Assembly: GCA_963782915.1 (NCBI GenBank)
Contig: CAWALK010000025.1
Location: forward strand, 64,001 to 128,000
Origin: an uncultured archaeon
GTDB taxonomy: Archaea; Thermoproteota; Bathyarchaeia; Bathyarchaeales; Bathycorpusculaceae
Direction of reading: 5' to 3'
Length of the DNA stretch: 64,000 nucleotides
Position numbers and translations under genes: made by a program. Positions 3,033 through 59,332 of this stretch are shown here, one piece after another. The notes under the pieces are model-generated. The model saw only the letters and a list, made by a program, of their open reading frames with translations, had not been told where the DNA came from and made no database searches. The stretch's first letter is position 1. Each line of letters begins with the position of its first letter.

Positions 3033-3035
3033 TAG

Positions 3036-4584
3036 ATGAAAGCTAAAGGCGGTCCCTTAGGCAAAATCTTCGGTTTCCTCAACACAGCATCTAGCGAAGA
3101 GAGAGAGAAAACCGAGACAGAGTTGCCTTTCGCAGTCATGATTTTCACTTTGATGGCTGCAAGCGGGATTTCGCCTTATGATAGCTGGAAGAAAATGCGT
3201 AAGATGACTTTTCTGCCCTTCTTCAAGAAGGAAGCAGATGAAGTCATACGACAAGTTGAGGTCCTCGGAAAGGATCCACTGACCGTTATGATTCAGCGAG
3301 CCGAAGAAACGTCGTCAAAGTTGTACCGTAACTTTCTTGGCGGCTTCGTGTCTTCGGTACGAAGCGGAGGCAAATTAGTCGATTACATGAAAAGCCAGCT
3401 TAAATCAATCTTTGAATTACGCTACATCAACCTTAACCGCTCAATCGATAAAATCGCTGCGTTGGTTGAAGCCTACTCAGTCATGCTCATCGTAGTATTG
3501 TGCGTTTACATACTCTTCGTTATCTTTTCGTCCTCAAGCGTTATGGATTTGCTTGCCAGCACTTCCATCTCGATTTCGCCAAGCATCTCCTACATCATAG
3601 CTTTCGTAGCCATGCCGGTTATGTCTTGTATTTTCATCCTCATGGCGCATAACATGCAGAAAAGCGCTTTCCCAAACCTAAAAGACGTCTACAAAAAAGC
3701 AATCATCTTCATAGTTCCCGCATTCGTAGTCATCGGCGTTTTCGGCATGATTGGTTCACTCACCGAAGCAATTAAACCACTTGGGCTTCCAGAAATCGCT
3801 ACCATCGCCCTCGTTGGCTCAACAATACCCGGTGCCATACAATACTATCGTATATCAAAAATCAACTATAACGCTGAAGAATCCATCCCCAGCTTCATCC
3901 GAGATATAACGGAATCCCAAAAAACTGGTCTTTCACCCGAAAAAAGCATAGTGCAAGCTACAAAACGCAAGGGTTATGGGTCATTCACAAAGTTTCTAGA
4001 TTTGATTCGAAGCCAAATAGAGTGGGGTATACCGCTTAGGAAAACTTTTGAAAACCTCCAAAAGGAAATCCGAAGCTGGTTTGTCGTCGTAAACTTTGCC
4101 ATGATGGTTGAAACCCTTGAAATCGGCGGCAACTCTATTCAATCACTTGAAATTCTCTCTGAATACAGCGAAAAAGAACGCGAAATACAAATCAACCGCC
4201 GAACACTCCTCAAGCCCTATATTATTTTGGCTTTCATGTGGAGCGCCTTAATCGCTGTTACAACAACAATCGTTGCCCTAACTACTACTATGATGACTGG
4301 CATGGTTAGTACTGATATCTCCGCAATGGCTACGATGGCTATGCAGAGATCAACTCCAAGTCTTCTCAGTCGGAATCATTATTCAATGCTGGATTTCAGG
4401 GTTCTTTATTGGAAAAATAAGCGAAGGGAACTTTGGAGCAGGCTTTAGAAACGCAGCTATGCTTGCAGCAACCGCATATCTGTCATTGGTGCTCTCGCAA
4501 TATCTACTGCAGGGAACATTCACTATGATTACGCCGCCAACCAGTAGTGGAGGGTCTCCCATAACTGCCTTCCAGTTCCTTTGA
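3036..4584 (+). CDS. Type II secretion system F family (TadB/TadC/FlaJ-like) membrane platform protein; frameshift near 4345, end approximate
   Basis: Two T2SSF-like repeats (ELPFAVMIFTLMAASGISP; SIPSFIRDITESQKTGLSP) and multiple TM helices; C-terminal ISGFFIGKISEGNFGAG lies in the shifted frame. Confidence 0.85.
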
Positions 4585-5602
4585 TACCTTCTTTGCTTGT
4601 ACCATCATCGTAGCAGCGGCGCTCATAGCTACGGCTTTTTTGGGCACAACCCTGCAGGCTAGAATCGCTAGCACAGATGATGTCAACAAGGATAGTTACC
4701 TCACAGCTATAGCTGACCGCATAGTAACCTACCCAGGAAGCCCCAACGATTGGGGAAAACGCCAAGATGTGCCCCAAGATTTCGGTTTAGCCGCCAGTGC
4801 ATCAAATGGCGCAAACGAGTTGGATATAGATAAGATCAGTCGGCTTAGCAGCCAAAACAGGTATGCATTAGGGTATGTTGAGTTGGTAAATGCTGCTCAA
4901 CTAAACGATATGGCTTTGGGAATCACGGTTTCACAGGTTATGACCCTCACTATTGAGCAATCCAGTAGTCATACCGTTGGCAGCGAAACCTATTCTACAG
5001 TGCATGTTTGGTCGAGCATTAACTCAAAGCCAACCGGCGCGAATTTGCATTGTTATCTTATTGCGGATAATTATGTAGATAACCTTACTGCGGTGATCCC
5101 TGAGTCAGGAACCTATACCTTAACTGTGCATCTTCCCAGCGCACTAGTTGATGATGCTTTGCTTGTAGTGTTTGCGAGGGCACCCTTTGATGACAGAATT
5201 ACCTCATACGCAACCTATAACTTATCGAGTGGAATCCAGCAAACAACACCCAACGGCACAACCCTATCAATGAGCCCACAGGATTATACACTTAGTTTCA
5301 ACCAATCAAGCGTCACAATTGGAAACGTTTACGCCTTAACCTATTCTTACATGCAAAACGTAACCTCAATCCAAACCTCAACTTGCGCAATCCCCAGATT
5401 AATCGATAACAGCCCATTTGTTCTGGTTGCCTGTGCAGGGAACGGCGCCAATTATGTCGAAGAGTGGACAGCTTATCCCCAAGTTCCCCTAAACGCGGGT
5501 TCCAGTTTTGAAGGTTCAGAACGCAATGTCTTCAGTTACTTAGTTACCGTTGATGGGGTGCTCTATCGGCTTGAGGTAAGCTTGGGAGATGTTAACCATT
5601 GA
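4565..5602 (+). CDS. Secreted/pilin-like protein of Tad/T4P locus
   Basis: Frame open from CTG 4565 (LPSSSFDTFFACTIIVAAALIATAF hydrophobic helix) into ORF 4640-5602; overlaps next gene by 4 nt. Confidence 0.65.
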   Translation: MPSSSFDTFFACTIIVAAALIATAFLGTTLQARIASTDDVNKDSYLTAIADRIVTYPGSPNDWGKRQDVPQDFGLAASASNGANELDIDKISRLSSQNRYALGYVELVNAAQLNDMALGITVSQVMTLTIEQSSSHTVGSETYSTVHVWSSINSKPTGANLHCYLIADNYVDNLTAVIPESGTYTLTVHLPSALVDDALLVVFARAPFDDRITSYATYNLSSGIQQTTPNGTTLSMSPQDYTLSFNQSSVTIGNVYALTYSYMQNVTSIQTSTCAIPRLIDNSPFVLVACAGNGANYVEEWTAYPQVPLNAGSSFEGSERNVFSYLVTVDGVLYRLEVSLGDVNH

Positions 5603-6024
5603 GGCGACTAATTAAAGACCAGAAGGGGCAAGTGCGCGTGATAGAAGCCTTCTTTGCTTCGATGCTGATTCTGTCCTGTTTGACGCTTATTCCAGCCCAA
5701 ACAACGGTGGATAGTCCTGATGACAACTTGGCATCTAAAGCTGAGAATGTCCTTGTAAGCCTTGATGGCAACGGGCAGTTAGGGCGGCTTATTGATAGCC
5801 GTGATTGGGTTGGGCTTGGCAATTGCTTGGAATCTGCTTTACCGCTTATGCTGTGGTTTAACTTAACAGTTTACGATGCAGATCAAAACTGCCTAAACTC
5901 CTATCCGATATGTAATGGCGGCGCTGTTAGCAACGAGGTTTCATCAATTACCTATGTTTGTGCCAGCCAAAACAGTACGTTTGCTGTGTATGTTTTGCAG
6001 TTGCAGCTGGCGAGGGTGGACTAA
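5599..6024 (+). CDS. Archaeal pilin-like protein with class III signal peptide
   Basis: KDQKG|QVRVIEAFFASMLILSCL processing motif plus hydrophobic stretch. Confidence 0.75.
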   Translation: MRRLIKDQKGQVRVIEAFFASMLILSCLTLIPAQTTVDSPDDNLASKAENVLVSLDGNGQLGRLIDSRDWVGLGNCLESALPLMLWFNLTVYDADQNCLNSYPICNGGAVSNEVSSITYVCASQNSTFAVYVLQLQLARVD

Positions 6025-6025
6025 A

Positions 6026-6829
6026 ATGGCTCGTCGAAGTTTTAGGCGTGACTGTCGCGGCCAAGTTATCATTGTTAGCGCCTTGTTGGTGGCTTTGATT
6101 TTGCTTTCAACCGCAATCTATGTTATCGATATCCAAAAAGATGTGCCCATGGTCGAGACTGAAAATAGCGGCGGCTCAGTCAACGCGTATAAATCAAGTG
6201 TCAGGAATGCCTTGATTAGTGCTTTGGCAAACGTTACTGGTGGCGGCAGCTCAGCGATTTTAACATCTGATTTGGCGGAATTGAAGGCTGCTATTCTTGA
6301 GCATTCTTACCAATCCCTTACGCGGATGGATTATACTCTGCGGGACGGCGGCGTCTATTCGGATGGGGTTTGGGTTTCATGGGGCAACAGCGGCGATGGA
6401 GTGTCGAGTGCATATGTTTCCGTAACGATTAGTTCTAAAAGTTCCTCTGGCGGCTCAGAGGTGGCATATGCATTGAATGTGACGTCCCGTGTGCATGTAA
6501 GCGGCAGCTATGTGCAGCTTAATGAAACGCATAAGCAAGTCAATTTAACAGTGAACTATTACAGTGAATCAGGCGATGCGTTAGCACAAAACTTGGTTTT
6601 CAGCTACCAAAACGCTTCCAGTTGGGTAGCTGCAGAATCGCCCACAATAATCAACTATGGAAACGGCACATACACAGCCTCTTTCTATGCACAAACCAGC
6701 CAAGTTAGTGAGCCGTTGGATGTTTCAACATTATGTTTAGACACGAGAGGTATATCTGTAGGAGCAAACTTGACATGCAGTACGCATAACGTAATAGACA
6801 CTTTACTGGCAGGTTGGTTTGATGAATAA
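6026..6829 (+). CDS. Archaeal pilin-like protein with class III signal peptide
   Basis: ATG 6026; MARRSFRRDCRG|QVIIVSALLVALILL motif. Confidence 0.75.
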   Translation: MARRSFRRDCRGQVIIVSALLVALILLSTAIYVIDIQKDVPMVETENSGGSVNAYKSSVRNALISALANVTGGGSSAILTSDLAELKAAILEHSYQSLTRMDYTLRDGGVYSDGVWVSWGNSGDGVSSAYVSVTISSKSSSGGSEVAYALNVTSRVHVSGSYVQLNETHKQVNLTVNYYSESGDALAQNLVFSYQNASSWVAAESPTIINYGNGTYTASFYAQTSQVSEPLDVSTLCLDTRGISVGANLTCSTHNVIDTLLAGWFDE

Positions 6830-8144
6830 ATCCATTAAAGCTATAGTTGCGTTGATGATTGTTGCGATAGTTTTAACCATCGTTAGCATGGCGCAGACGT
6901 CTCAGCCTCTGAGTGTGGATGATGGTTCATTTTTGACTGTGTCTGAAGGCAAAGCTGTTTGGGCTCAAGCTTACGGTGGCTCAGCAGATGACCGCGCATT
7001 ATATGCCTTGCCGGTAGGCGATGGGTTTTTGGTTGTTGGTTCAACCCGCTCAGTTGTGAATGCAACGGTCGGGTGGGCTCTAATGCTTGACAGCCAAGGC
7101 AACCAACTTTGGAATCGTACTTATCTTGATGGGGCAGGAACCGAAATCCGCTGTGTAGCCAACACAAGCGATGGTTATTTGCTGGTTGGGAACCAGTTTG
7201 CGGCTTCCGGCGACATCAACGGCTACGTTGCAAAAGTTGACTTAGCGGGTGCCGTGGTTTGGCAAACAGTTGTCGGCGGCACAAAAATCGACAAACTCTT
7301 TAGCGGCGTCGTTGCAAGTGACGGGTTTGTTGTTTGCGGCTTAAGCTACTCCTATGGCAGCGGTGATGCGGAGTCTTGGGCAGTGAAACTGGATGGCAAG
7401 GGCGTAGTGGTTTGGAATAATGTTTACGGCGGCTACGTTGACGCTGCATTACGCTCAGCTGTGGTCGCTTCGGATGGCGGCTTCATTACGGCAGGTTATG
7501 TGGATGAGGGCGAGGGCAACTATGATTTTTACCTCCTAAAACTCGCCGATGATGGTAGCCGCGTATGGAATCACACTTACGGCGGATTTGACAGCGAGAA
7601 AGCTTACTCTATCACCCGAGCCCAGAACGGCTACGTAGTTGTGGGTGACGCGGCTTCAACCGCAACCAATACAGACGCTTGGGTCCTCAAAGTAGATTCT
7701 CAAGGCGCTCAGGTGTGGAGTAAAACGGTAGGGGGAAACAGCGCTGATTCAGCAGCCTACGTCACAGCCGCCAAATCCGGAGGCTACCTAATCTGCGGCT
7801 TCACATTCTCATTCGGCGAGGGCCAAAGGGATTTCTGGCTATTTAACATAAGCGAAGAAGGACAAGTAGGATTCAGCTGTACATTTGGTAACTCTGCATT
7901 CCAGGAAGCCTACGCCGTCATCGATGCAGGCGCAGGCGAATATGTCTTGGTTGGTTGGACTGATCCATTGGGGCAGCCTGAGTTGGTCGGCCGCGCCACC
8001 TACGACTTCTATGTAGTAAAACTTAGTCAAGGCGAAGTTGCCAGTAGTTTCTCTACGGTAACCCTAGTTTTGACTTTGGTTATCTTTGCGCTTTTAGCGG
8101 TAATTTTGGTTTTGCTGTTTCGGATGCGGGGAAACAAAAAATAG
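6819..8144 (+). CDS. Secreted beta-propeller repeat protein with C-terminal membrane anchor
   Basis: Signal peptide; repeated LD/VDxxGxxxWxxxYGG units; C-terminal TM with basic tail. Confidence 0.8.
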   Translation: MMNKSIKAIVALMIVAIVLTIVSMAQTSQPLSVDDGSFLTVSEGKAVWAQAYGGSADDRALYALPVGDGFLVVGSTRSVVNATVGWALMLDSQGNQLWNRTYLDGAGTEIRCVANTSDGYLLVGNQFAASGDINGYVAKVDLAGAVVWQTVVGGTKIDKLFSGVVASDGFVVCGLSYSYGSGDAESWAVKLDGKGVVVWNNVYGGYVDAALRSAVVASDGGFITAGYVDEGEGNYDFYLLKLADDGSRVWNHTYGGFDSEKAYSITRAQNGYVVVGDAASTATNTDAWVLKVDSQGAQVWSKTVGGNSADSAAYVTAAKSGGYLICGFTFSFGEGQRDFWLFNISEEGQVGFSCTFGNSAFQEAYAVIDAGAGEYVLVGWTDPLGQPELVGRATYDFYVVKLSQGEVASSFSTVTLVLTLVIFALLAVILVLLFRMRGNKK

Positions 8145-8182
8145 TTCAGCCAAAAAGGCTGTTTTTAGCCCAAAAGGGCTGT

Positions 8183-9065
8183 TTATTCTTCTGTTAGTTT
8201 GGAGAAGAGAATTTGCAATGTGTTTACGAGTGCTTTGTAGTTGGTCCAAATTGCTGCGGTGCGGAACTTCTTTTTAACGTCGTCTGTGTCGTCGTTGTCT
8301 TTTTCGTGGAATGTGATTAGGACTTCTTTTTTGTCTGCGATCATGAAGCATGGTAAGTTTTCTTCGTTGTTGCTGATTCGGTGTTGGCCGCTTAGCCAGG
8401 TCATTTCGCCTAGGAAGTATGCACTTTTGAGGCTGGTGTCTGTGATGACTGTTACGTTGACTTTGTCTGCTTGGGTTTTGAGTTTGTCGCTGAAGTCGTT
8501 GTAGTAGAGTTCGCTGAGGTAGTCTGCGGATGCGTAGATTTGGAAGGTTTCTACGCTGCGTTCGAGGAGTTCGTTGGCTTTCATCAGCACCTGTTGTTCG
8601 CCTTCTAGCATTTGGAAGAGTTCTTTTTTGGCGGTTTCCTGTTTTGCTTGGGGCATAGATTGCCAGAGTTCGACGAGGCTTGGTTTTTCTTGTTCGAGTA
8701 GTTTGATTTTGATTTTCTGTGCGTCAACGAGTAAGTCGATGGCTTTGTCTAGGGCTACTGCGGTGAATTTGAGTGGTTTTTCGAAGATTGAAAATACGAT
8801 GCCTTTCTTTTCTAGGTCGCGTAGGATGCGGTAGGTTTCTGTGCGGTGCAGTGCGATGGCTTCTGCGATTTCGCCGGCTTTCTTTTCGCCTGCGCGGGCA
8901 AGGTAGAGATATACACGGATCTCGTTTTTGAGTAGCCCAAATCTTGCGAGTGTTTCCTCGATTGATGCTAACTGCTTGACTACTGTTTGGTCTTTCTTGA
9001 CAAGTTTGTAACCATCCGATTGCTTGTTGTAGACCTTCATCACGTTTTCCATTGCAAGTGCCATA
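8183..9065 (-). CDS. TrmB family transcriptional regulator
   Basis: FGLLKNEIRVYLYL...AGEIAEAIALHRTETYRILRDLEKKG HTH plus C-terminal effector-like domain; start approximate. Confidence 0.85.
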
Positions 9066-9137
9066 TAGATTAAATCCTGTTTGGGGGTATTGCATCTCAA
9101 TTTAGACTGTTAATATATAATATCGTTGCGACTTAGC

Positions 9138-9160
9138 AATATGAATTGGTAATTCATATT
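9138..9160. promoter_or_regulatory. Perfect palindrome, candidate operator upstream of the TrmB gene
   Basis: AATATGAATT-GGT-AATTCATATT, about 20 bp upstream of a minus-strand TTATATA box (9114-9120). Confidence 0.5.
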
Positions 9161-9656
9161 CGAAATATCGTTTATTTGCATGATTAAATATTGCAAATGA
9201 AATAAGTTAGCGTTTGAAATGTTGAATGCTGTACAGTTTGGTGTTTGACCAATCCTGACACACAGAACTGTTTGTCACCGACCACACACCTACAACCATT
9301 AAAGCAGTAAGCCCCCGCAGGACAATTTCTCTGATAAATCTAACCTTGATAGGAATATTTCGCCAATTTGCTCTGCAAACGTGCCATCAAGCATTAAAAT
9401 AACAGAAAAACACATTGAGTAACTGGGGATAGTCAGATTTTGAGTAATAATAATGAAGGATACAAAAAACAACATAAAACCTCAAAACAGAACAAGCCCG
9501 ATATAACCGCCAAACTCTCACGTGTTAACCTAGACGAACAAACAAATAAGGGCCAACAATGTTTAAACGCTCTAACAAAACAATCAACAAGTAAATTGCC
9601 CGACGGAAAAGACCACAGCTAACAAAGCGGTTGATACATCAAAAAAGAGATTATCA

Positions 9657-10049
9657 TTAGGCCTCTGTCTGTATCGGTAATTGAATTATGAATTTTGTAC
9701 CCATTCCTTCTTTACTTTCAAAACCGATAGTTCCATTTAATGCTTCTATTAACCGTTTTACAACGGCTAATCCCAACCCTTGACCTTTAGCTTTGGTTGT
9801 TGTCATCGGCGTAAATAGCCTATTTTTAACTTCTTCAGGGATACCCATACCCGTGTCAGAAACAGTAATGTAAACTTGGGTTTCACTATGGTAGCATGCT
9901 ACGCCCAATCTTCCTCCATCTGGCATGGCTTGAATTGCGTTAGTAACTAGATTTGTTAGTGCTCGTCTGATAAACAGCGGGTCAGTTTTTAGTGGTGGGC
10001 AGTTATTTACTTCGATTGAAAGTTTTATTGACACTAGCTCCTCTGCCAT
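9657..10049 (-). CDS. Isolated histidine-kinase-type ATPase (HATPase_c) domain, probably truncated
   Basis: N box NLVTNAIQA, G1 DTGMGI, G2 GQGLGL; no HisKA or sensor domain. Confidence 0.75.
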   Translation of the reverse strand: MAEELVSIKLSIEVNNCPPLKTDPLFIRRALTNLVTNAIQAMPDGGRLGVACYHSETQVYITVSDTGMGIPEEVKNRLFTPMTTTKAKGQGLGLAVVKRLIEALNGTIGFESKEGMGTKFIIQLPIQTEA

Positions 10050-10389
10050 GTTCTATATGTGATAAATAAACGCTAACTTTAGTGCATAAGAAAAATAGCC
10101 ATTAATTGATAGGTAAGGGCAGGCCTAAAATATTGGATTTATTAACTTCTAATTTTTCGCCTTTGTTGTTGTTGGTTGAAATCACAAGCTTTTAAATTAC
10201 CTATTGACCCTCAAATTGAATGAGGTCGTTAACATTTTATTATTTTTAACTCTAAGAAGACAGCGTAGCATACATCCTCAGCTTTTTTCACTTAGGAGTT
10301 TTTCCCTGTAAAATCCTATTGTAGAGTAGATAGATAGCAGTTAGAAGCGAGCCGATTCATGAGTTGTTTAAGAGAAAAACAAAGAATAT

Positions 10390-11646
10390 TTGGAGATCAG
10401 CGAAATGTTAATCGAACTTCTATTTGCGGTGAATATGATCTCGTTAGTTGTACTCATAACCTATGCCGCTAGACAGTACCTTTTTGTCTTCGCTGCTTTG
10501 AGGCATACTGAACCAAATTACCAATCGGACAATCAACCAGGTTATACTGTCACTATACTAATTCCTGCTAGAAACGAAGAAAAAGTAATCGGGCGAACCT
10601 TAGAATGTATGAGTCGACTCGATTATCCGCTTGATAAATTGGAAATTGTGGTTTTAAACGATGCATCAACAGATAATACGTCAAAAATCGCTCACCAATG
10701 GGCTGATAACTTCTCCGCGATAAAGGTTATCGATAGGCCTTTGGGCGGTTTAGGCAAAGGCGATGTTTTAAATCAAGGCATAAGAGAAACTAAAAATGAG
10801 ATTATTTTTATTTTTGACGCTGACTACACCCCTGCTCCTGATACAATAAAAAGGCTCATACGATGGTTCGATGACCCTCAAATTGGCTTGGTTCAAGGAA
10901 AAATTCAAGTTGATAATAAAGACGAGAATAATCTAACCAAAATGGTTCATACTGAGAGATGTGCGGGGTTTCTTTGTGACCTTTTAGCGCGAGACAAGCT
11001 AAAGGTTACCAACCAATTTGGCGGAACAGCTGGCGGTTTTAGAAGATCCCTCATTAGCCAAGTTGGGGAATGGGCGCCCAAAACGTTTTGTGAAGATACT
11101 GATTTGACTTGCCGTACTTTACTGGCGGGGTTTAAGGTAAAATATGATGCTTCTGTGAGTTGTGGCGAAGATGCCCCAGATAGGTTGAAGGTGTATTATA
11201 AACAGCGGTACCGCTGGATAAGGGGGCATGTTATTTGCGGATTAATGTATACGGCTAAATTCATTCGATCGCCTTTTTTATCTCTTCGAGAGAAAGTCGA
11301 TGGCGTACTTTGGTTAAATTTAAACTGTATTCCAATTTTTATTACAATCGGAACACTTGTTGGTTTTATAAGTCTATTATTGGCCCCAGTCGAATTAATA
11401 CCTCAGCCGTTCTCTGTTGCTCTCATTATTTTTGGAGCTGGAGCTACGTTTGCCACAGTTTTCACTGGTCTATATAGAGTTAAACAGGTAAGATACCTAA
11501 AGTTTGCTTTCTTGATGATGTTGAATAGTTACGTCATGTGTTTTGTGATTTGTTTGAAGGTTTATCTTGACATTATAACCAACCGAGCGTTTAGCTGGGA
11601 AAAGACCGAGAGAAGCCAAAAAGCGTTTAAACCCATTAGAACTTAA
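10390..11646 (+). CDS. GT2 family processive glycosyltransferase (cellulose synthase/PgaC-like)
   Basis: IPARNEE, DAD, EDTDL and KQRYRW (QxxRW) motifs plus TM helices. Confidence 0.9.
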   Translation: MEISEMLIELLFAVNMISLVVLITYAARQYLFVFAALRHTEPNYQSDNQPGYTVTILIPARNEEKVIGRTLECMSRLDYPLDKLEIVVLNDASTDNTSKIAHQWADNFSAIKVIDRPLGGLGKGDVLNQGIRETKNEIIFIFDADYTPAPDTIKRLIRWFDDPQIGLVQGKIQVDNKDENNLTKMVHTERCAGFLCDLLARDKLKVTNQFGGTAGGFRRSLISQVGEWAPKTFCEDTDLTCRTLLAGFKVKYDASVSCGEDAPDRLKVYYKQRYRWIRGHVICGLMYTAKFIRSPFLSLREKVDGVLWLNLNCIPIFITIGTLVGFISLLLAPVELIPQPFSVALIIFGAGATFATVFTGLYRVKQVRYLKFAFLMMLNSYVMCFVICLKVYLDIITNRAFSWEKTERSQKAFKPIRT

Positions 11647-11711
11647 AAAAAAGAACAAATAGGGATATTGTCCAAAATTGTAGCTGAATTTTCAATTTTA
11701 GGCATTAGAGA

Positions 11712-12068
11712 TTAATATCGTGTTTGGTGGCGTTCTCTTTCAGTTTCAGGGATAAATGTTTCTGGTCTATTAGTTTCTGTTCTGGGTTCCTCGGGCGATC
11801 TTATTTCTGGTCTAATTGCTTCTCGTCTATAGTTTCCTTCGGCTCTTTGTATGTCTTCATCTAGCCTTCTTAGCTCTAAATCTACTTGTTCGTTTACTTG
11901 TTCAGTAGTCCATCGGTCCTCTACTCTATCTTCAACGCGTTCAGCTACTTCTACGGCTACTCGTTCTGGGAGACCTGCCGCTTTTAATGTGTCTTCGATG
12001 TCTTTGCTATCAAACTTTATTTCCTCGCCTGAGCGGGTAATTATTTTTGGTGAACCTATCTTTACCAA
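11712..12068 (-). CDS. Stand-alone ATP-cone domain protein
   Basis: IITRSGEEIKFDSKDI...TTEQVNEQVDLEL resembles an ATP-cone; charged low-complexity tail. Confidence 0.65.
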   Translation of the reverse strand: MVKIGSPKIITRSGEEIKFDSKDIEDTLKAAGLPERVAVEVAERVEDRVEDRWTTEQVNEQVDLELRRLDEDIQRAEGNYRREAIRPEIRSPEEPRTETNRPETFIPETERERHQTRY

Positions 12069-12630
12069 AAAATCACCTCCTTACCTGTCTATAAATTGCT
12101 GCTCTACCAATGCCAGCCGTGTTTCTCTTCTTTCTTACTTTTAGCAAAAAGGCTTAATCCGATTGCAGCCGCAGCGGCTCCAATGCTTGCGATGGCTATA
12201 TACTTCTTATAGTGATGCAAAATCATTTCTCCTAAGGTAGCCATGGAAAAAAAATTAATAAAGTTGTGTTGTTACCAGATTGAAATACAAAAGCAGCAGA
12301 CATCATTAGTTAGTGTGTGTCCCAGTTGATGTAGCGGTAAAAATTGAACCAACCGTTTGCTAAACTGATGCGGTTCAGTATTGTATAGCGGCAGTTTATT
12401 GTTAAACTATTCCCGATATTCGCTGACTATCCTGAAGCGAATAAAGTTAGGTATCTATGACTTATCAAATTAGTCGTCGCCAGTTTGAGTTGCACTAAGG
12501 ATTAGTTGCAGCATCTATAGTGGGTGTGTTCGGTTGCTTTTCTAATGGGGAATGATGGTTTGAAACGCAACAGCGTTTTTTTGGCTACGAATAGAGGCTG
12601 GTCTGAATTTAAAAATTAATAGAGAAGTAG

Positions 12631-12749
12631 GCTGCCAGCTTTCCCAGGTTCACGTGGCCTAAGACCACACTACAGCTGGGAACGGAACACGGTTTAACTT
12701 CTGAGTTCGGTATGGGATCAGGTGGAACCCGTGCCCTTTGACCGGCAAA
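12631..12749 (-). rRNA. rrf: 5S ribosomal RNA (not linked to 16S/23S in this window)
   Basis: Reverse strand reads CCTGATCCCATACCGAACTCAGAAGTTAAACCG, with pairing termini TGCCGG/TGGCAGC; TATA-like CTTATAAG about 25 nt upstream. Confidence 0.95.
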
Positions 12750-12825
12750 CCCACCTCTACGTATCATCTTCTCCTTATAAGTGTTGTTTTTTTGTTTATA
12801 CTTTCCCAATTGATCTCTTGTTTGC

Positions 12826-12930
12826 CAAAATTGCTTATAGGCGGCGGCTGGGGCTGGTTGCTGTTGACTGGCCGACTATTCCTGTATGGTTCAGGCTAGC
12901 GCCCGACTGTATTGTGCTGTTCAATGCTGC
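12826..12930 (+). repeat. Intergenic repeat block P, copy 1
   Basis: CAAAATTGCTTATAGGCrGCGGCTGGG matches 46850 onward at 26/27; weaker similarity continues for about 100 bp. Confidence 0.75.
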
Positions 12931-12945
12931 TCGTTGTTTGCAGTC

Positions 12946-13048
12946 AGTCTTTATATAAGGGAGGGGGAGGGTCTTCTGAGGTAGGTAGGTCTAGTCTTTT
13001 TGTGCTTTTAATAGGGGTAGGGGGTCGTTGGCAAAGCAGCAAACCCTC
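12946..13048 (+). repeat. ~100-bp G-rich repeat Q, copy 1 (left inverted-repeat arm)
   Basis: AGTCTTTATATAAGGGAGGGGGAGGGTCTTCTGAGGTAGGTAGGTC matches the reverse complement of 16857-16959. Confidence 0.9.
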
Positions 13049-13164
13049 CAACACCAAAACATGCCCTTCCCTGTTGCATTTCAAACCCTTCAACGTATAT
13101 ACCTGCATGTTAGCAACAAATAAAAGCGCATGATGCTGTATCGGCTACTAAGAGGATATTAACT

Positions 13165-13815
13165 ATGTCTGAACGATTTGCTAAGAAATGGGAAGCTAAA
13201 AAAGAAGGAGAGTCACTTTCAACATCAATCAAAAACAGCGTTAAAGCTCCTCCACCGCTAAAACCTGCCTTGGATGCAGCTACTCGCAAACTTGATATGC
13301 AAATCAGCAAACTCGATCAAGCTAATGAGCGTTTTACACAAAAAGACAAAGCCCTATTCGCCAAACTCGTTGACTCATATACCAAGCATGACCAAGCACA
13401 CGCAAACATTTACGCAACAGAATTAGCTGAACTGCGTAAAATGAGCAAACTCATCATGAACGCACGGCTCGCACTCGACCAAGTCGCACTCAGAATAAGA
13501 ACCGTATCAGAATTAGGCGACGTTGTCTCAGCATTAGGTCCATGCATCGGCGTACTGCGCAGCGTATCCAGCGGACTAGGCGGCGTACTCCCAGAAGCAG
13601 AAGGCGAACTCGGCGACATCGGCAACATGCTAAGCGGCTTAATGTTCGAAGCAGGCAGCTCAAGCGGTATGTCACTAAACTTCGACAACGTAAACGAAGA
13701 CGCATCAAAAATCTTAGCCGAAGCAGCCACCGTTGCAGAACAGAAAGTCAGCGCCAACTTCCCAGACCTTCCACCCGGAATGCCTGGAACAGCAAAAGCT
13801 AAAAGCCAACAATAG
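13165..13815 (+). CDS. ESCRT-III/Snf7 family protein (CdvB paralogue)
   Basis: Helical Snf7 core (ANIYATELAELRK...ALDQVALRIRTV), EDASKILAEA helix, proline-rich MIM2-like tail FPDLPPG. Confidence 0.85.
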   Translation: MSERFAKKWEAKKEGESLSTSIKNSVKAPPPLKPALDAATRKLDMQISKLDQANERFTQKDKALFAKLVDSYTKHDQAHANIYATELAELRKMSKLIMNARLALDQVALRIRTVSELGDVVSALGPCIGVLRSVSSGLGGVLPEAEGELGDIGNMLSGLMFEAGSSSGMSLNFDNVNEDASKILAEAATVAEQKVSANFPDLPPGMPGTAKAKSQQ

Positions 13816-13904
13816 AATAAACTTCCCAACCTTTCCTTTTTTGTTTTCTTTTTTTGCAGCAACACATATATCCCTAAAACATCGCTAACAATTCTGGTGT
13901 AAAC

Positions 13905-14036
13905 TTGGATTCACCTCATCTGTGCCCAGAATGCTATGTGGAAATGAAACCAAAATGCGACAGCACTGGCCGACTGATTTATCATCAATGCCCCAAATGT
14001 GGTATGCTAATTTTATTCACCCACTCCGGACACTAA
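13905..14036 (+). CDS. 43-aa CPxCG-type zinc-finger microprotein (not in ORF track)
   Basis: TTG start after GGTG SD-like motif; MDSPHLCPECYVEMKPKCDSTGRLIYHQCPKCGMLILFTHSGH. Confidence 0.65.
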   Translation: MDSPHLCPECYVEMKPKCDSTGRLIYHQCPKCGMLILFTHSGH

Positions 14037-14135
14037 AACCTGTTTTGCTATGGTTGTATCCTGCCGGAACAGGCTGTTCTAAAGCTTGGACTTATATGTA
14101 GCTGCCCATGATACTTCGGGGAGGGCATCAACCGG

Positions 14136-14582
14136 TTGAACACCAACAGCGAAACGGAGTTAGAATACGCTCTACGCGGCAAAGCTTGGAAAGTATATTG
14201 GTTTCTGCTAAAAAACGGTGCCCCAGCAGGCGTGCGCGAAGTTCAACGTGCCCTACATTTCAGTAGCCCAAGCATCGCCTTTCACCACCTCGAACAACTC
14301 AGGGAGTTGGGGTTGGTTGAGAAGCAAGAAGTCGGCGGACATTACGTTTTGGTTGGCCAAGTTAAAATCGGTGTACTCAAACATTACGTGAAACTTGGCA
14401 AACTACTCTTTCCGCGTTACTTCTTCTATGCGCTGTTCTCAACGCTATTCTACGGTTTGTATTTGGCGTTGATGGTTCACAGTTTCACCCGCGACAACCT
14501 CTTCATCATCACTTTTGGCGCGATTGTCTGCGGAATCTTTTGGTATGAAGCTTACCGCATTTGGGGTATGAGGCCATTCTAA
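14136..14582 (+). CDS. Membrane-anchored winged-HTH regulator
   Basis: GVREVQRALHFSSPSIAFHHLEQLRELGLV HTH followed by two TM helices. Confidence 0.8.
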   Translation: MNTNSETELEYALRGKAWKVYWFLLKNGAPAGVREVQRALHFSSPSIAFHHLEQLRELGLVEKQEVGGHYVLVGQVKIGVLKHYVKLGKLLFPRYFFYALFSTLFYGLYLALMVHSFTRDNLFIITFGAIVCGIFWYEAYRIWGMRPF

Positions 14583-14657
14583 TTAGTAGTACAGCATGTT
14601 CGTGGGCTTAGCATCAAATAAAAACATGCCTAATGATGAAAGTGGAGAAAAAGGTAT

Positions 14658-16648
14658 ATGGTTCAAAAAGAAGTCAAAAAGAAAACTGGCATTTACGCAT
14701 TAGTAGCTGTGCTTTCGGCTGTTGTTTTAGTTTCTATGGTTTATTCATTGGGTTCTTACCCGGCGCTTTCGCCCGTCGCTCAATTGCCTGCGGTTTCGGG
14801 CATGAAAACTTTTTCGTCAGTGGATGAAATAAAAAATTATTTGAATTCAAACTCGCTTAATTCGCCTTTAGTATCTTCACCTAACGAATATTGGGCGCGA
14901 CCCGATGCGGCATTTACTTCGGGCTCAACCGATAAGGGTACCTACGGAGTAACTACTGATTACTCAACCACAAACATACAGGTTGCAGGAGTAGATGAGG
15001 CAGACACCGTAAAAACAGACGGCCAATACATCTACACCCTATCCAGCAAACAATCTATCAGTCCATACTACTCATACGATTCCTTTTCTCAGGCAAGCAA
15101 CAACATCTACATAGTAAGCGCTAACCCACAAAACCCCTGATGTTATATCCAAAATTGTCTTAGACAAACAATCTACTCCAATGGGGATTGTTTCTAAGCT
15201 CCGATAGCAAAAAACTGGTTGTATTCGAAAGCAAATACCAAAGTTCCCCCTATGGTTCAAGAGAAATAACGATTATGCCCTACTACAGCAGCCAATTCAC
15301 CGCCATCTACGTCTATGATATCTCAAACAAAGCATACCCCACTTTAGCTCGCAACTTAACTGTGACTGGAAACTATTTCAATTCACGTATGATCGGCAAC
15401 TATGTTTACGCGGTAACAAGCCAAAGCGCCTACATCTATGACGATGTTGTGCCGGTTCCAGCCCTCTACAACGGCGGTACCGTTTCTGCCTCTTCCCCTT
15501 CAAGTATCTACTACGCAGACATGAACCAATCCAGTAGTTACTCCTTCACAAGCTTCTACGGATTAGACCTATCAAACGATTTGGAGCAACCCGCCAAAAT
15601 GACCGTGCTCATGAGCGGCGCCAGTACAATGTATGTTTCCCCAGATAACATCTATGTCGCTTACCCCAACTGGGTAAACGGCTCCGGCGTAACCGCCATT
15701 TACAGAGTAAAAATCGACGGTTTACAGTTAACCCTTCAAGCACAAGGCAATGTTCCCGGCTACACGATTAATCAGTATGCCATTGACGAATACAGCGGTA
15801 ACCTGCGAATAGCCACTAATCTCTGGCAGTACACTGCTCAAAGCGATGTTTTCGGTGGACAGCAGGGTGCACAAATCAACAACGTCTATGTCCTCGACCA
15901 GAATCTCACCATTATCGGTAGACTTGAGGGTTTAGCAGTCGGCGAAAACCTCCATTCCGTTCGATTCATGGGTGAACGGGGCTATTTGGTCACGTTTAAA
16001 ACGACTGATCCTCTCTTTGTCATCGACTTAAGTCAACCCAGTAACCCAACGGTGCTAGGCGAACTCGTAATCCCAGGCTACTCGGATTATCTGCACCCAT
16101 ATGACGCGACACATTTGATCGGTGTGGGAAAAGAAGCTGTTGACTCAGGCCATGACTTCGCTTATTACCAAGGCGTCAAGTTAGCGCTCTTTGACGTTAG
16201 CAACGTAAACAATCCAATTCAGGTAGCGAACTATGTCATCGGCGACAGAGGCACCGACTCAGCGGTTCTAAATGACCCCAAAGCTTTCCTCTTCGACAAA
16301 ACCAAAGACCTGCTTGTAATGCCCATTAGTTTGGCGTTGGTAAGTGAAGAAAATCGGCAGCAACAAGGCAGCGCTGCTTATGGCCAAACCGTTTGGCAAG
16401 GCGCATACGTCTTTAGCGTTTCAGCAAACGGCAACTTTACACTAAAAGGCACCGTAACACACCTAGACGCTTCATTGCTAAACAGCACAGGATACCTAAA
16501 CGACAGCAACAACTACTACACAACCCAAAACCAGTGGATAACACGCTCACTCTACATCGACAACACACTCTACACCATCTCAAACTCCGAAGTCAAACTC
16601 AACAGCCTAACCAACCTCTCAGAAATCGCCACAGTGCACCTATCATAA
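14658..16648 (+). CDS. Secreted beta-propeller domain protein (Beta_propel-like); frameshift near 15130-15190
   Basis: Family motifs YSTTNIQVAGVDEADTVKTDG, SVRFMGERGYLVTFKTTDPLFVIDL, ELVIPGYSDYLHP. Confidence 0.85.
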
Positions 16649-16856
16649 AACATCTTAATTCTTCCTTTTTTTCTTGTCAGAGCTCAACTGCATTTTTTTC
16701 TCTATCCCCCTTATTTATAGGCTCAACAAGTGTAGGCTCAAAGTCAAATGGGCAATGCATCCATTAGGGAAAGTATTGCGTTCAGCAGGCGTTTGTTGGT
16801 TAACCACTGATTATTTGATGCATTTGCAATTTAAGCCTGCTCAGCTTGCGGTGCCC

Positions 16857-16959
16857 GAGCTTTTGTTGCTCTGCCAAGACCGCCCTATCCCCTACAAAAA
16901 GCATCAAAAGAAGGGACCTACCTACCTCAGAAGACCTCCCCCTCCCTTATATAAAGACT
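16857..16959 (-). repeat. Repeat Q, copy 2 (right inverted-repeat arm)
   Basis: Reverse complement of 12946-13048; first 46 nt identical except for a 1-nt gap. Confidence 0.9.
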
Positions 16960-17156
16960 CAATATCTGTTGGCTAAGCTGATGCCTGCATGCACATGCGT
17001 TAAGATGTTCCATATTCTGTTGGGCGACTGTGGGGTTAGGCTGGTTTTCTGTGAGCGTTTGCCGCAGTCCTGCAAGCGCAAAGGGCAAACAGTCGCCGAT
17101 AAAGCATCCACCGCAAGTCGCAGGGTAGCCCGATTAGCCGAATGCCACAAATACAG

Positions 17157-17189
17157 AAGGCGGGTTACAACCAATACACCACCCAATTA
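17157..17189 (+). repeat. Direct repeat R1, copy 1
   Basis: AAGGCGGGTTACAACCAATACACCACCCAATTA. Confidence 0.85.
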
Positions 17190-17338
17190 ACTGCCGCAGA
17201 AACAATTAATTTCCGCTTCGCTCCTTTATAGCGAGTAGCTCTGCTTCTGCGCTTTCTTTGGGAAAAAAAGTTGCAAAATCTTCTATGCCTTCCGCTGATC
17301 AAATATTGATCTATTTTTTACGAAAAGAACTGCGTTTT

Positions 17339-17611
17339 CTAAAGCATATTTACTGCTTCTTGTCGGGGTATCGCTACAAGTGTTTCGGTTGTTACCCATT
17401 TGGAAATGCCCATTGCAGTTTTTAGAGCTTCCTTTTCGTTTGCTGCCTCAAAAATAAATACAACATCATATTGTCCCAGTGTCCAATACCAATTTAGCAC
17501 TTTTATTCCCTTTTTCTTGTACTCCTCAATTAGTTGTGTGGCGTCTCCTGCTGTTTCTTTTGTGGGGGTTATTATGAATTTGTTTAGGCTTACAAAAATC
17601 AAATCATTCAC
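17339..17611 (-). CDS. GYD domain protein
   Basis: YWTLGQYDVVFIFEA...TTETLVAIP signature. Confidence 0.85.
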   Translation of the reverse strand: MNDLIFVSLNKFIITPTKETAGDATQLIEEYKKKGIKVLNWYWTLGQYDVVFIFEAANEKEALKTAMGISKWVTTETLVAIPRQEAVNML

Positions 17612-17758
17612 CTCCGGCCCATAGAAAACTCCAAGAAAAATTCATTTGAATCTAATTAAATAACGTTATTTCAAGCCTTTCTTTGAATCTGCCTGAACCA
17701 ATCAGGCTCAATCCTCAAATTCAACCCCCAGTTTCTTCCATGTATAGAGCTAAACCTC

Positions 17759-17792
17759 TAAGGTGGGTTACAACCAATACCCGACCCAATTA
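17759..17792 (+). repeat. Direct repeat R1, copy 2
   Basis: TAAGGTGGGTTACAACCAATACCCGACCCAATTA. Confidence 0.85.
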
Positions 17793-18009
17793 GTTAACCT
17801 CCATGCAAGTAGGAATCCGTTTTTCGTTGACAGGCAATTATAAAACACGAAATAAAAGAAAGAGAGATTTCGTTGACGATTTACCGCATAAAACTTGCGT
17901 TATACCATCGGTTAAACGCATGGGCTAATTTTTTAGCCACTGCTCTCAACACCAGTCTCAATCGTCTCGGTCTCTTCGGGTGAAGCTGTACGCATTTGTT
18001 TTTTGCTTT

Positions 18010-18645
18010 TTATCTTTTGCTCCTTTGCCCTTTACTTCTTCTTCTGTTAATGTGGTTTCTATCGGTACTTTTTCCTTCGAAGCCCCGACATAATGCATCT
18101 GCTACTTCTAGGAGTTTTAGTATGGCTTGCTCGGAAAACATTCCACTAGTCCTGATAATCCTGCAATTACAACCACATTTAATGCCATAACTGCTGCGCC
18201 AATCGTTAATAACCCTCCTCGAATTAAAAGATAGAAAATAAAGGCTACCCCCGCTCCGAGAAGTGGTCGAACAGCATACCATGATCTGTACCGCACATAA
18301 TCAAAATCGTTCTCTCTACCTAAATGGTGAGACGCTGCCCAGAGGAAAAAAGGCATGCACTCTATGGCGCCTGAAACCATCATAACAACAACAAGCAGAG
18401 TTTCATGCGACCCACAAACGATAGAACCGAACGTGTGAAAAGGAAATTATCCGATTGTAGTGTTAATATCGTTAATTTGATTAAAAGCAGGTAAGTTGTA
18501 TGATTGAATGTGCTTGTAGCATTGAGATCCGGAATCTTCTGTGGCAGCAGGCCAAGCACCTATCATACAAATATGCCGGATAACGAGAAGTATTACGAGT
18601 TGAATATATTATCAGATAGACGTGCTCCCTTTCGGTCAGAATCAT
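18010..18645 (-). pseudogene. Degraded membrane protein gene; 5' limit approximate
   Basis: WYAVRPLLGAGVAFIFYLLIRGG...GLVGMFSEQAILKL spread over two frames; in-frame TAA near 18448 as well as frameshifts. Confidence 0.55.
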
Positions 18646-18780
18646 CTGTTTGATGTACCATAAATTTAACCTATAATTCAATTAACAGGTCTAAGTATTT
18701 AAGACTTAATAAAATGACCATATATAGCTTGCAATAATGAACATATGGCGATGGATTGGTTATAGAAAATTACTGATCCT

Positions 18781-18807
18781 TAAGGCGGGTTACAACCAAT
18801 ACACCAC
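18781..18807 (+). repeat. Direct repeat R1, copy 3
   Basis: TAAGGCGGGTTACAACCAATACACCAC. Confidence 0.85.
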
Positions 18808-18974
18808 ACCACTTCTTTACCTTTTTAGCGTATCTTCCAGAAAGCAAGGGCTCTGTTCTTGCAATACGATATTAGTTCTAAGATAATTTGAATAATTGAG
18901 AATAGTAAAAGAGGCGTAACTGGCAACTAACTGGCTTTGCAATTTTTCGTCTGCTAAGGTCCTATAGCCCTTAT

Positions 18975-19662
18975 TTATAGTACTGAAGTTAGGATGATGA
19001 CCAAAGCTAAGATAAAGAGCGCTAAAGCAGCGTAGTATAGGCCATATTTTAGTTTCTTTGCGAAGGACGGGGCTCTCCTCAACCCATAAACCGATGCTGA
19101 ACATTAGGATTACGGCTATTATCCATGACAAGTAGAGTGCTGTTTGGATGTAGAGCCCAAACAATCCTAGGATTATCGGCACCAATATTACAAATGCTGC
19201 CCCACCATTCAAACCCATATCAGCCAAAATTATCGTGGCGCTTTCTTTGTAGGGTGGATGTTTCTCTTGCTCACTTTGGGCAAGGTTAGCGACCACATTA
19301 TCAATGATTTTCTTCTTGTCCTCATCATTTACTACATTGAAGACTGAATCCTCAAGGTCTTCCTCCACCATGCCACGGCTTAGTCTTCGCTTTTCCTCTG
19401 ACTTCGCATAATCGATCATAGCGTTCTTCCTCTTGGCAGTGTGGTAGTTTTCGAATACGTAAAAGATTCCATCAGCAAAACCCCAAATGAGGCAATAGCC
19501 CATAGAAGAAGCGATTACGTAGATGACTGCGATGTCAGTTATAATTGGGCTTCCCCATATTACGGGGTTTCTAAGAGTAGCGGTCAGGGCTAATGTCATT
19601 ATGACTCCAAAGATGGGTTCAGACGAGAACCAGAACCGTCCGAAATAATCCGATAGCCCCAA
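18975..19662 (-). CDS. VIT1/CCC1-like membrane protein (frameshift near 19050)
   Basis: SEPIFGVIMTLALT, WGFADGIFY, several TM helices; final helix continues in shifted frame to TAA 18975. Confidence 0.55.
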
Positions 19663-19817
19663 AAACAGTTCCTCATGATGTTAAGCAAAATAGGGCACTT
19701 AACAATTTGTGGCTTCATAACAATGCCAACAGACATCTAAAGGCTTATAACTAGAGCGTAACGAAGGATGATCAGTGTTTAAAATTGAGTGAAGATAATA
19801 AGAAATTACTAAGCCCA

Positions 19818-19841
19818 AAGGCGGATTACAACCAGCAAACC
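19818..19841 (+). repeat. Direct repeat R1, degenerate copy 4
   Basis: AAGGCGGATTACAACCAGCAAACC; shares upstream AAATTACT with copy 3. Confidence 0.65.
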
Positions 19842-19947
19842 TGTCGGTCATCTGGACAGAACCTGCCGCCAATAGTAACCTGAAAAACTCATAATTCAGA
19901 CTACTTTTTAGAAAGACTTGAGTACCCAAAAGTGCACTGTTTGAGTA

Positions 19948-20538
19948 GTGACCTTTATGGCAGACAAAATTTCTTTGGGCGCTAATTCTTTTGCCCCAGT
20001 AACCCCCGTTTGGGTAGTCGGCACATATGACCATGCTGGAAAACCGAATGCTATGACGGCTGCATGGGCAGGGGTTTGCTGCTCTAAACCTCCATGCGTT
20101 TATGTTTCACTAAGAAAAGCTACCTACACATACGGCAACCTCATGGAGCGTAAGGCGTTTACTGTTAGTTTTCCCTCGGAGGCTTATGTTAAAGAAGCTG
20201 ACTATTTTGGGATGGCTTCGGGGAGAGATTCTGACAAGTTCGCAGTTACTAAGCTTACGCCTGTGAAAAGTGATCTTGTGGATGCACCGTACGTGGGGGA
20301 ATTTCCAGTAATCTTGGAGTGCAAGGTAATCAATATAGTTGAAATCGGGTTGCATACGATGTTTATCGGCGAAGTCCTCGATGTTAAAGCCGACAAGAGC
20401 GTGCTAGGTGAGAATGGGATGCCTGATGTTGAGAAAGTGAAGCCGCTGATCTGGAGTATGGCAAACATGTCCTATCGCAAGGTCGGAGGGCACGTGGGGA
20501 AATCGTTCTCGGTTGGCAAGGATGTAAGCAAATCTTAG
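19948..20538 (+). CDS. Flavin reductase family protein (flavoredoxin-like)
   Basis: PNAMTAAWAG, ADYFGMASGRDSDK, LECKV...GLHTMFIGEV. Confidence 0.9.
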   Translation: MTFMADKISLGANSFAPVTPVWVVGTYDHAGKPNAMTAAWAGVCCSKPPCVYVSLRKATYTYGNLMERKAFTVSFPSEAYVKEADYFGMASGRDSDKFAVTKLTPVKSDLVDAPYVGEFPVILECKVINIVEIGLHTMFIGEVLDVKADKSVLGENGMPDVEKVKPLIWSMANMSYRKVGGHVGKSFSVGKDVSKS

Positions 20539-43286: not shown

Positions 43287-43322
43287 AGGGATGATGTCGC
43301 CGTTCCAGCCTTAGGGCAAAGT
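43287..43322 (-). repeat. Dispersed repeat R5, copy 1
   Basis: ACTTTGCCCTAAGGCTGGAACGGCGACATCATCCCT on minus strand; 34/36 match to 59100-59135. Confidence 0.88.
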
Positions 43323-58923: not shown

Positions 58924-59099
58924 GTCTTGTTAATAGCTGATTCAGTTTCTTTGTTAGCTTTTGATTATTTCTTTCTAGCTATTCTTTTGCTATGTTGCTT
59001 ATAACAACTGATAAGATTCAATGCTAAAAAGGGCAGACTCTAAAAGCTTATGACTAGCCTGTGACAATAGAAATTAGGGATAAATGTCTCCGAAAAATT

Positions 59100-59135
59100 A
59101 CTTTGCCCTAAGGCTGGGAAGGCGACATCATCCCT
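59100..59135 (+). repeat. Dispersed repeat R5, copy 2
   Basis: ACTTTGCCCTAAGGCTGGGAAGGCGACATCATCCCT. Confidence 0.88.
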
Positions 59136-59332
59136 CGACAAATAAGCAGTCGCCAAAAAAACACTGGTTACAACAAATTATTCGGAACTCTATCAGTCGC
59201 TTAACGTTATTTCAACTATTTTCGTTGCTACCGCGGAACCTTTACTCAAATAACACTTATGGGTAGGGGTTGCTTGTTAGTTTTGCTGGGTGATTTGGGC
59301 TGCTGGATGGTGAGGAGTATCGGGCTAAGCTT

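Follow-up and report, generated by a model that had tools for sequence, protein, structure and literature searches.

A detached four-copy array in an uncultured bathyarchaeon as the probable remains of integrative elements at the RNase P RNA gene

In a 64,000-nucleotide (nt) stretch of contig CAWALK010000025.1 (assembly GCA_963782915.1; hereafter the window, numbered from its first letter), which belongs to an uncultured archaeon of Bathycorpusculaceae (Bathyarchaeia), a site of about 25 nt occurs four times on the same strand between 17157 and 19841, and successive copies are separated by single genes or what is left of them. What this site is and how it came to be repeated is the question raised by the locus. 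A preliminary description, made from the sequence of the window alone, proposed an undescribed gene-cassette capture array served by a recombinase encoded elsewhere or, alternatively, stacked scars of the ends of insertion sequences (ISs). We find here that the repeated site copies the RNase P RNA gene's tail, and we consider it highly probable that the array is a fossil stack of attachment sites from integrative elements that targeted the 3′ end of this gene. The source genome is a metagenome-assembled genome (MAG) of 25 contigs and is 93.5% complete; its contigs are given below as C15 and so on, while other genomes and loci carry the letters G and L, respectively.

The repeated site as a copy of the RNase P RNA tail

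The 16-mer GGGTTACAACCAATAC is matched exactly on the plus strand at 17162, 17765, and 18787. When up to three mismatches were allowed, five matches were obtained in the window as against a mean of 0.51 in 100 shuffled sequences, none of which reached five; the two additional matches (17382 on the minus strand and 44676 on the plus strand) carry three mismatches each and are taken as chance. The copy at 19818 has four mismatches in the 16-mer and was thus missed in this search. A repeat search nonetheless gave one direct family of four copies (17157, 17760, 18782, and 19818) with spacings of 603, 1022, and 1036 nt, and the region of 19734-19842 was recovered by nhmmer (E 2.9e-21) with a profile built only from sites of eight relatives. 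By exact matches, shuffling, repeat search, and the profile, therefore, the four same-strand copies of the preliminary description are borne out. In contrast, the inverted arms described within the site match at just six of nine positions, which is about chance by a hand estimate leaving the spacer and the position free. The core GGTTACAAC is indeed present at 59166 as had been noted, but its flanks are dissimilar there, and this one 9-mer beyond the three of the array compares with 0.46 expected.

The RNase P RNA gene of the genome is located at C15:218743-219046 (RF00373, 184.5 bits), and genome-wide, the 16-mer occurs without mismatch only in the array and at C15:218745, namely at the 3′ end of this gene; a copy that differs by a single mismatch lies on C24, where the surrounding sequence looks coding-like. 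The last 25 nt of the gene are identical to copies 1 and 3 (25 of 25 nt) and agree with copy 2 in 20 of 21 nt. Around copy 1, furthermore, the region of 17067-17182 shares 91% identity with the C15 gene over positions 206-320 of the latter. In a search with relaxed thresholds, this region scored 33.7 bits with RF00373, which is below the gathering score of 84 and hence indicates a fragment but not a gene; upstream of 17067, no similarity to the 5′ part of the RNase P gene was detected. In the Rfam alignment, the site spans an unpaired stretch, ACAGAAGG..UUA, together with the strands that close the terminal helices; in terms of RNase P anatomy, it would include P4 with its 3′ strand and P2 and P1 with their closing strands. 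The misfit of the site to the attC rule (RYYYAAC/GTTRRRY), which had been pointed out, is in line with its nature as the 3′ strand of RNase P helices with a dyad at six of nine positions only. Over the whole window, Rfam at the gathering threshold returned 5S ribosomal RNA (rRNA) only, and no transfer RNA (tRNA) gene was found. The repeated site is most probably the attachment core of integrative elements that target the archaeal RNase P RNA gene at its 3′ end.

As the copies are intergenic, lie between co-oriented genes, and have a repeat resembling a miniature inverted-repeat transposable element (MITE) 100 nt away, the site might instead be read as regulatory, either as a terminator or as a box for a transcription factor, or else as an IS or MITE end. 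We give scarcely any credence to this reading, because a mismatch-free 16-mer confined to the RNase P gene and the array argues against it, neither terminal inverted repeats nor a transposase were found, and the ends of the MITE are of a different sequence. The same confinement tells against the stacked IS-end scars initially offered as the alternative, and the MITE-like repeat at 16692-16964 is a separate insertion. Near-full copies of this repeat are present at C25:127993-128266 (90%) and C18:166595-166857 (85%), with dozens of end-only matches across the genome and a related piece at 12949-13043 of the window.

RNase P RNA genes and integrases in related genomes

When the last 131 nt of the gene were searched against 101 genomes of the same Bathyarchaeia genus, 360 matches were obtained, 150 of which were listed. 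Among the matches listed, a count by hand gave extra 3′-terminal fragments for about 33 genomes out of the other 100. These fragments almost always end at the 3′ end of the gene; AAGG is the exact start of many of them, and a further group measures 60-115 nt. Fragments of the type found around copy 1 (class A) start at gene positions 206-219 in nine further places in relatives. Thirteen RNase P loci of relatives were then taken because a second hit shared the contig, and in all of them, one to three further same-strand copies follow downstream, 0.7-11 kb apart. In a Pfam scan, which covered nine of the 13 loci (L077-L080 being left out), an open reading frame (ORF) with the integrase family PF00589 was found to abut the end of the gene in three, i.e., G003 (12 nt), G050 (70 nt), and G086 (split), and a broken integrase was found at a fourth (G076). 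By a comparison of coordinates, integrase genes are no more than about 300 nt away from the end of the gene or from a detached fragment in at least nine genomes. In four of those nine, the integrase runs parallel to the RNA gene, and in the other five, it converges on the RNA gene; the converging integrases are about 30% identical and hence represent another lineage.

In public genomes, a scan with an alignment of two integrases as the query detected 13 loci encoding their relatives, all in Bathyarchaeia MAGs, and at seven of them, the start of the integrase match coincides with the end of a full-length RNase P RNA. The preliminary description had suggested looking for an integrase linked to copies of the site in related genomes, and such an integrase is thus present at four of the nine scanned loci and at seven of the 13 public ones. 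The integrases of the relatives are matched by the general PF00589 model, while their XerA matches are sub-threshold (71-80 bits with a cut-off of 220) and the integron-integrase model gives 43-45 bits with a cut-off of 265.

In G003, G086, and G050, the core is read in the frame K-A-G-Y-N/G-Q-H/Y-T (KAGYNQ), which continues into the integrase. The distal cores of G003 and G086 are preceded in the same frame by an ATG and 19 and 14 codons, respectively; in G050, the frames at the two cores are off by 1 nt. In G096 (contig C7), furthermore, an unsplit, intact integrase ORF of 331 amino acids (aa; L091:1423-2418) has as its 5′ coding end an RNase P-like fragment of 116 nt, of class A, within which it begins, and it continues across the core. 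With the attP inside the 5′ end of the integrase gene, integration splits this gene. Many cores are also preceded by a conserved stretch of about 110 nt (class B arm), as an alignment of ten sites revealed. A promoter-like box TCTAAAAGCTTATAACTAG in this arm is followed after about 40 nt by an ATG, which starts a run of about 15 codons leading up to the core. In G064, this box and ATG likewise stand at the head of an intact integrase (340 aa), which is located beside an orthologue of the membrane-protein gene of the window. The first codons of this integrase (L087:4301-5420) carry a different core, and to the eye, its reverse complement resembles the 5′ part of a tRNA.

At three of the seven occupied public loci (L131, L137, and L142), an ATG-started frame runs from about 85 nt inside the RNase P gene into the integrase; as far as can be read from the sequences, the RNA gene may supply the first ~30 codons of the integrase there. 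The assignment of the site to a tyrosine recombinase in the preliminary description is well founded.

In a rival reading, RNase P DNA or RNA was scattered in pieces and no site-specific recombinase took part, the copies being either remnants of a duplicated gene or reverse-transcribed 3′ fragments. Nearly every fragment ends at the 3′ end of the RNA, and the lengths vary from 25 to 115 nt, as would also be given by abortive copying from the 3′ end. Such scattering is nonetheless very improbable, because the lengths cluster at starts at AAGG and at gene positions 206-219, the core is in frame with adjacent integrase genes, the copies are on the same strand and bound shuffled modules, and the sequence upstream of 17067 has no likeness to the 5′ part of the gene.

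In the mechanism we favor, the attP of an element, being a copy of the 25-nt stretch, would recombine with the end of the RNase P gene (attB) through a tyrosine integrase; integration would restore the RNA gene and leave a second core copy at the far end of the element. New elements would enter at the gene-nearest core with older ones pushed outward, and internal deletions would leave of the older elements only core-bounded modules that have lost the integrase. In the main lineage, where the attP falls among the first 20-30 codons of the integrase gene, the promoter and the gene start would be found after integration at the distal core and the remaining integrase gene beside the RNA gene. The window would then hold four scars in direct order. 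The first has an RNase P-like arm of 115 nt, the second is a bare core, the third has a partial arm, and the fourth has a full arm with promoter and gene start; enclosed between them would be three remnants, namely the GYD gene, a gene wreck, and a frameshifted membrane-protein gene. The undescribed system of cassette capture that had been proposed is unsupported; a familiar serial integration at an RNA-gene site, followed by decay, would account for the array.

An all-against-all comparison of the arrays showed that shared segments start or stop within a few bases of the cores. A vapBC module, for example, starts 0-5 nt from a core in G003, G096, and G002; in G096 (contig C5), it comes right after the RNase P gene, and in G003, two elements (11 kb) precede it. 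Both in the window and in G008, the end of the membrane-protein module is 3-7 nt from a core, with the similarity stopping at the end of the worn core. In G107, this module (83-87% identical) immediately follows the RNase P gene, and in G008, an island of 3.5 kb precedes it. The positions of the two modules fit newcomers entering at the gene-proximal core. The discrete modules between sites noted in the preliminary description are thus recognizable in relatives as well, with boundaries at the cores, and the variable gene content that was to be checked there was found: both content and order vary. The modules of relatives comprise one to about ten genes in both orientations, and the cargo between copies includes vapBC/PIN/MazE pairs, SIR2, PLD, an Eco57I-like methylase, lipocalin, PRC-barrel, and GNAT.

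Decay and displacement of the array in the window

The features of the array are collected in Table 1. A single minus-strand gene or gene wreck is present in each interval, as had been described.

Table 1. Coordinates of the array and of related features (positions in the window unless a locus is named)
Feature	Position	Strand	Basis or remark
MITE-like dispersed repeat, outside the attachment-site system	16692-16964		Between the beta-propeller gene and the RNase P fragment
Class A arm: RNase P RNA gene fragment from the 3′ end, 115 nt	17067-17182	+	Includes core copy 1 at its end (17157-17182)
Cargo gene 1: GYD-domain protein, 90 aa, apparently intact	17339-17611	-	PF08734, E 4.3e-12
Core copy 2: bare core, diverged beyond	17760-17785	+	20/21 nt as in the end of the real gene
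Cargo gene 2: wreck of a ~299-aa membrane-like protein	18000-18655	-	tblastn, three frames
Partial class B arm and core copy 3 (18782-18806)	18742-18806	+	nhmmer positions 52-118, E 2.7e-9; blastn
Cargo gene 3: membrane protein, unnamed 228-aa family	18978-19662	-	51 homologues; frame change near the C-terminus
Full class B arm and degenerate core copy 4 (19818-19841)	19734-19841	+	nhmmer, alignment
ATG-started frame into integrase, no stop	about 2960-3120 of L131, L137, and L142		Public Bathyarchaeia MAG loci

An orthologue of the GYD gene (Pfam) follows the same junction in the relative G089 with 79% nt identity. In cargo gene 2, residues 4-217 of two full-length homologues of the ~299-aa protein map onto three frames, and the last ~80 residues are absent; its pieces being spread across three frames, the gene is decayed, which agrees with the decayed gene reported for the second interval, and no family match of the Pfam/NCBIfam type was obtained. 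In cargo gene 3, the homologues are up to 91% identical and cover 73% of the ORF, and residues 1-205 are in one frame and 194-228 in another, the frame changing near residue 200. The label “VIT-like” previously given to this protein is weak, since the source name VIT1/CCC1 is attached to one of the 51 homologues and no Pfam or NCBIfam match was obtained. Two of the three cargo genes are thus broken. In the arm of copy 4, a promoter-like box TCTAAAGGCTTATAACTAG is retained at 19736-19754, and the start position of the integrase is TTG (19785-19787), where relatives have ATG, followed by about 11 codons. We infer that recombination made the array in the window and that the array is now inactive.

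Among the 35 ORFs at 1452-37393, the part of the window scanned with Pfam, no integrase was found, and for this part, the claim that a recombinase is absent from the surroundings of the array holds. Several observations nevertheless weigh against a fossil stack of attachment sites. The array is away from the RNase P gene, which is on C15, and hence does not have the geometry of an island. No remnant of the C-terminal part of an integrase follows any of the four cores; in the 93.5%-complete genome, no intact relative of the RNase P-targeting integrases was found, and the integrase matches it does contain are broken or weak, with none closer than 69 kb to the array. The three cargo genes are all co-oriented, which is unpredicted by serial integration, although with three genes this has a chance of about one in four. 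The right side of the array is represented by a single assembly only, and G089 has the same orphan junction (beta-propeller gene, core, and GYD gene), so that the displacement must be old. Nonetheless, given no C-terminal part after the cores, no integrase ORF, and only weak relatives, the intervals can be understood as remnants of elements that have been stripped.

Downstream of the real gene on C15, no copy of the tail was detectable, and this locus is syntenic with that of G089 and with the downstream flanks in other relatives. The array, on the other hand, follows a conserved block of 5S rRNA, Snf7-like, helix-turn-helix, and beta-propeller genes, which in the complete genomes G107 and G014 is about 100 kb from RNase P. 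G089 is without the 480 nt that hold the MITE-like repeat and the long arm in the window, and the synteny with G089 ends at 17709, about 50 nt before core copy 2. When ~1950-17709 is compared with G089:C5:44173-65192, the block from 5S to GYD and ~17 kb before it are rearranged by at least two nested inversions; one breakpoint is within 50 nt of core copy 2, and MITE copies are near the breakpoints. A simple inversion relative to G089 was hence rejected. As candidates for the origin of the orphan position, we consider excision of a composite island with re-entry at a secondary site, or chromosomal rearrangement; the clean RNase P locus on C15 would fit the former route.

Detached arrays of the same layout, with a long RNase P-like arm on the left and a promoter-type arm on the right, are present in G000:C12, G087:C5, G096:C7, and G075:C2. 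The first of these is a second orphan array in the source genome (G000:C12:62778-68024; L081:6779-12025), in which an RNase P-like arm of ~107 nt is followed by a core 2.8 kb on and by a promoter-type arm with a worn core 2.4 kb further; its modules are multi-gene (NosD-like, SCP2).

Orphan tails could also be the landing pads of a working cassette platform, on which the integrases of elements that are co-resident or visiting act in trans to cut out and reinsert one-gene integrase-less modules, either as an analogue of the integron or as cis-mobilizable elements. Such a platform would be compatible with the same ~1-kb core-bounded membrane-protein module in G107, G008, and the orphan array of the window, with the layout shared by the four detached arrays, with an intact integrase at the orphan site in G096:C7, and with copies 1 and 3 still being identical to the end of the host gene in 25 of 25 nt. 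We regard it as quite improbable, however, because two of the three modules in the window carry broken genes, no intact integrase of the RNase P-targeting kind was found in the genome, and the module is no better conserved from one species to another (80-87% identity) than the RNase P gene is, so that vertical descent with rearrangement fits equally well.

Unlikely, though worth stating, is the broader idea that Bathyarchaeia keep detached RNase P tails as landing pads, where the RNase P-specific integrases of visitors deposit, shuffle, and remove modules in trans, so that the tail of an RNA gene would take the place of attC in a cassette system, and that the RNase P RNA gene donates to the integrase its start codon, its first ~30 codons, and perhaps its transcription; if true, the gene for an essential ribozyme would at the same time provide the recombinase gene of a mobile element with its 5′ end. 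We therefore retain a fossil stack of attachment sites as the preferred explanation of the array.

Relation to known systems and neighboring features

Integrases of the SSV type are tyrosine recombinases with the attP inside the integrase ORF, and their integration puts one piece of the gene at each end of the element. Their attB is the downstream part of a structural RNA gene (a tRNA gene), which is restored on integration. The Bathyarchaeia integrase is alike in that it is split at the attP with the RNA gene restored, where the likeness is one of layout, as the family models reach PF00589 only. This partition of the integrase gene is seen in G003 and G086, and the window holds a remnant of the N-terminal arm only (19734-19841). 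Unlike the SSV type, the target here is the RNase P RNA gene, and the hosts are Bathyarchaeia; also, the split-off N-terminal piece comprises only ~15-30 codons and the promoter, its codons are RNase P-like sequence in one sub-lineage, and the host RNA gene supplies the ATG-started frame in three of the seven occupied loci.

Islands and proviruses at genes of tRNA and transfer-messenger RNA (tmRNA) stack in tandem, and the integrase-less derivatives are known as cis-mobilizable elements (CIMEs) of streptococcal integrative and conjugative elements. As in those islands, the units here are bounded by direct repeats of the 3′ end of an RNA gene, and newcomers share one entry site. As in CIMEs, furthermore, old units without an integrase persist as remnants flanked by attachment sites, the arms in the window being remnants of the promoter and start of the integrase gene. 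The differences are that the RNA gene is that of RNase P, the array in the window is detached, and its units are small (0.6-1.0 kb, one gene). Among the hallmarks of an island, repeats downstream of an intact gene on the same strand are absent here but present at all 13 preselected loci of relatives, and an integrase beside the attachment site is lacking in the window but present at four of nine loci of relatives and seven of 13 public loci; variable content bounded by the repeats is found.

Integrons, which consist of IntI, attI, and attC cassettes, include ones reported in Archaea. In both integrons and the present arrays, sites of tyrosine recombinases separate small modules, which in the window are co-oriented. 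In contrast to integrons, the array lacks IntI, attI, and a common promoter, its sites copy the end of an RNA gene and are not folded attC palindromes, the modules of relatives are multi-gene and in both orientations, and the arms carry their own promoter-like box. An integron was indeed rejected as a candidate since three of its defining features are lacking; no IntI-type integrase was found at or near either end of the array, and neither were an attI and a common promoter. The pdif modules of Acinetobacter plasmids are bounded by XerC/D sites, which are dif-like and occur in alternating orientations. In that case as well, small gene modules are delimited by short recombinase sites, but the sites in the window are all direct and derived from RNase P.

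Integrases of the SSV1/SSV2 type (type I) in Sulfolobus fuselloviruses are mentioned in passages of PMC6563490 and PMC10848311, and passages of the former also mention arrays of tyrosine-recombinase elements in archaea; the term “RNase P” does not occur in either paper. Full-text literature searches, outside of which are the supplementary target tables of PMC6563490, gave no report of RNase P RNA genes as integrase targets, and in the passages of the literature where “RNase P RNA gene” is paired with “integrase,” the gene serves only as a phylogenetic marker. As far as we have found, therefore, the present system differs from those described in the RNase P target, the RNA tail read as the N-terminus of an integrase, and the detached arrays. 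An essential RNase P RNA gene would accordingly be a hotspot of integrases in a large genus of uncultured archaea. If this is true, RNase P genes should be added to those of tRNA and tmRNA when archaeal islands are mapped, and detached RNase P tails would mark sites at which accessory and defense genes (toxin-antitoxin pairs, SIR2, PLD, and restriction-modification) accumulate.

Some further features of the window are of note. A flavin-reductase gene (19948-20538, plus strand) begins 107 nt past the worn core 4; the leftover promoter and gene start of the integrase point at this gene, and the promoter at 19736-19754 might now drive it. On the other side of the array, the adjacent ORFs at 14658-15140 and 15188-16648 both match PF09826 (profile positions 1-32 and 58-494, respectively), and the beta-propeller gene at 14658-16648 thus looks to be split by a frame change or a stop. 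At 59037-59117, furthermore, there is a promoter-plus-gene-start arm of the same type (nhmmer, E 1.1e-6) with a different core, AAGGCTGGGAAGGCGACATC... This core recurs at five sites, namely 43287-43310 of the window (minus strand) and C15:40302, 116366, 122407, and 124981; at the one site checked, there was no tRNA or Rfam family. The 9-mer at 59166 was considered as the second half of the array's core split by a 48-nt insertion, which was rejected because the AAGGCTGGGAAGGCGACATC... sequence after the arm recurs at the five other places. One copy of this core on C15 is 160 nt from a broken integrase. The arm at 59037-59117 with its own core probably represents a sister family of elements with another target.

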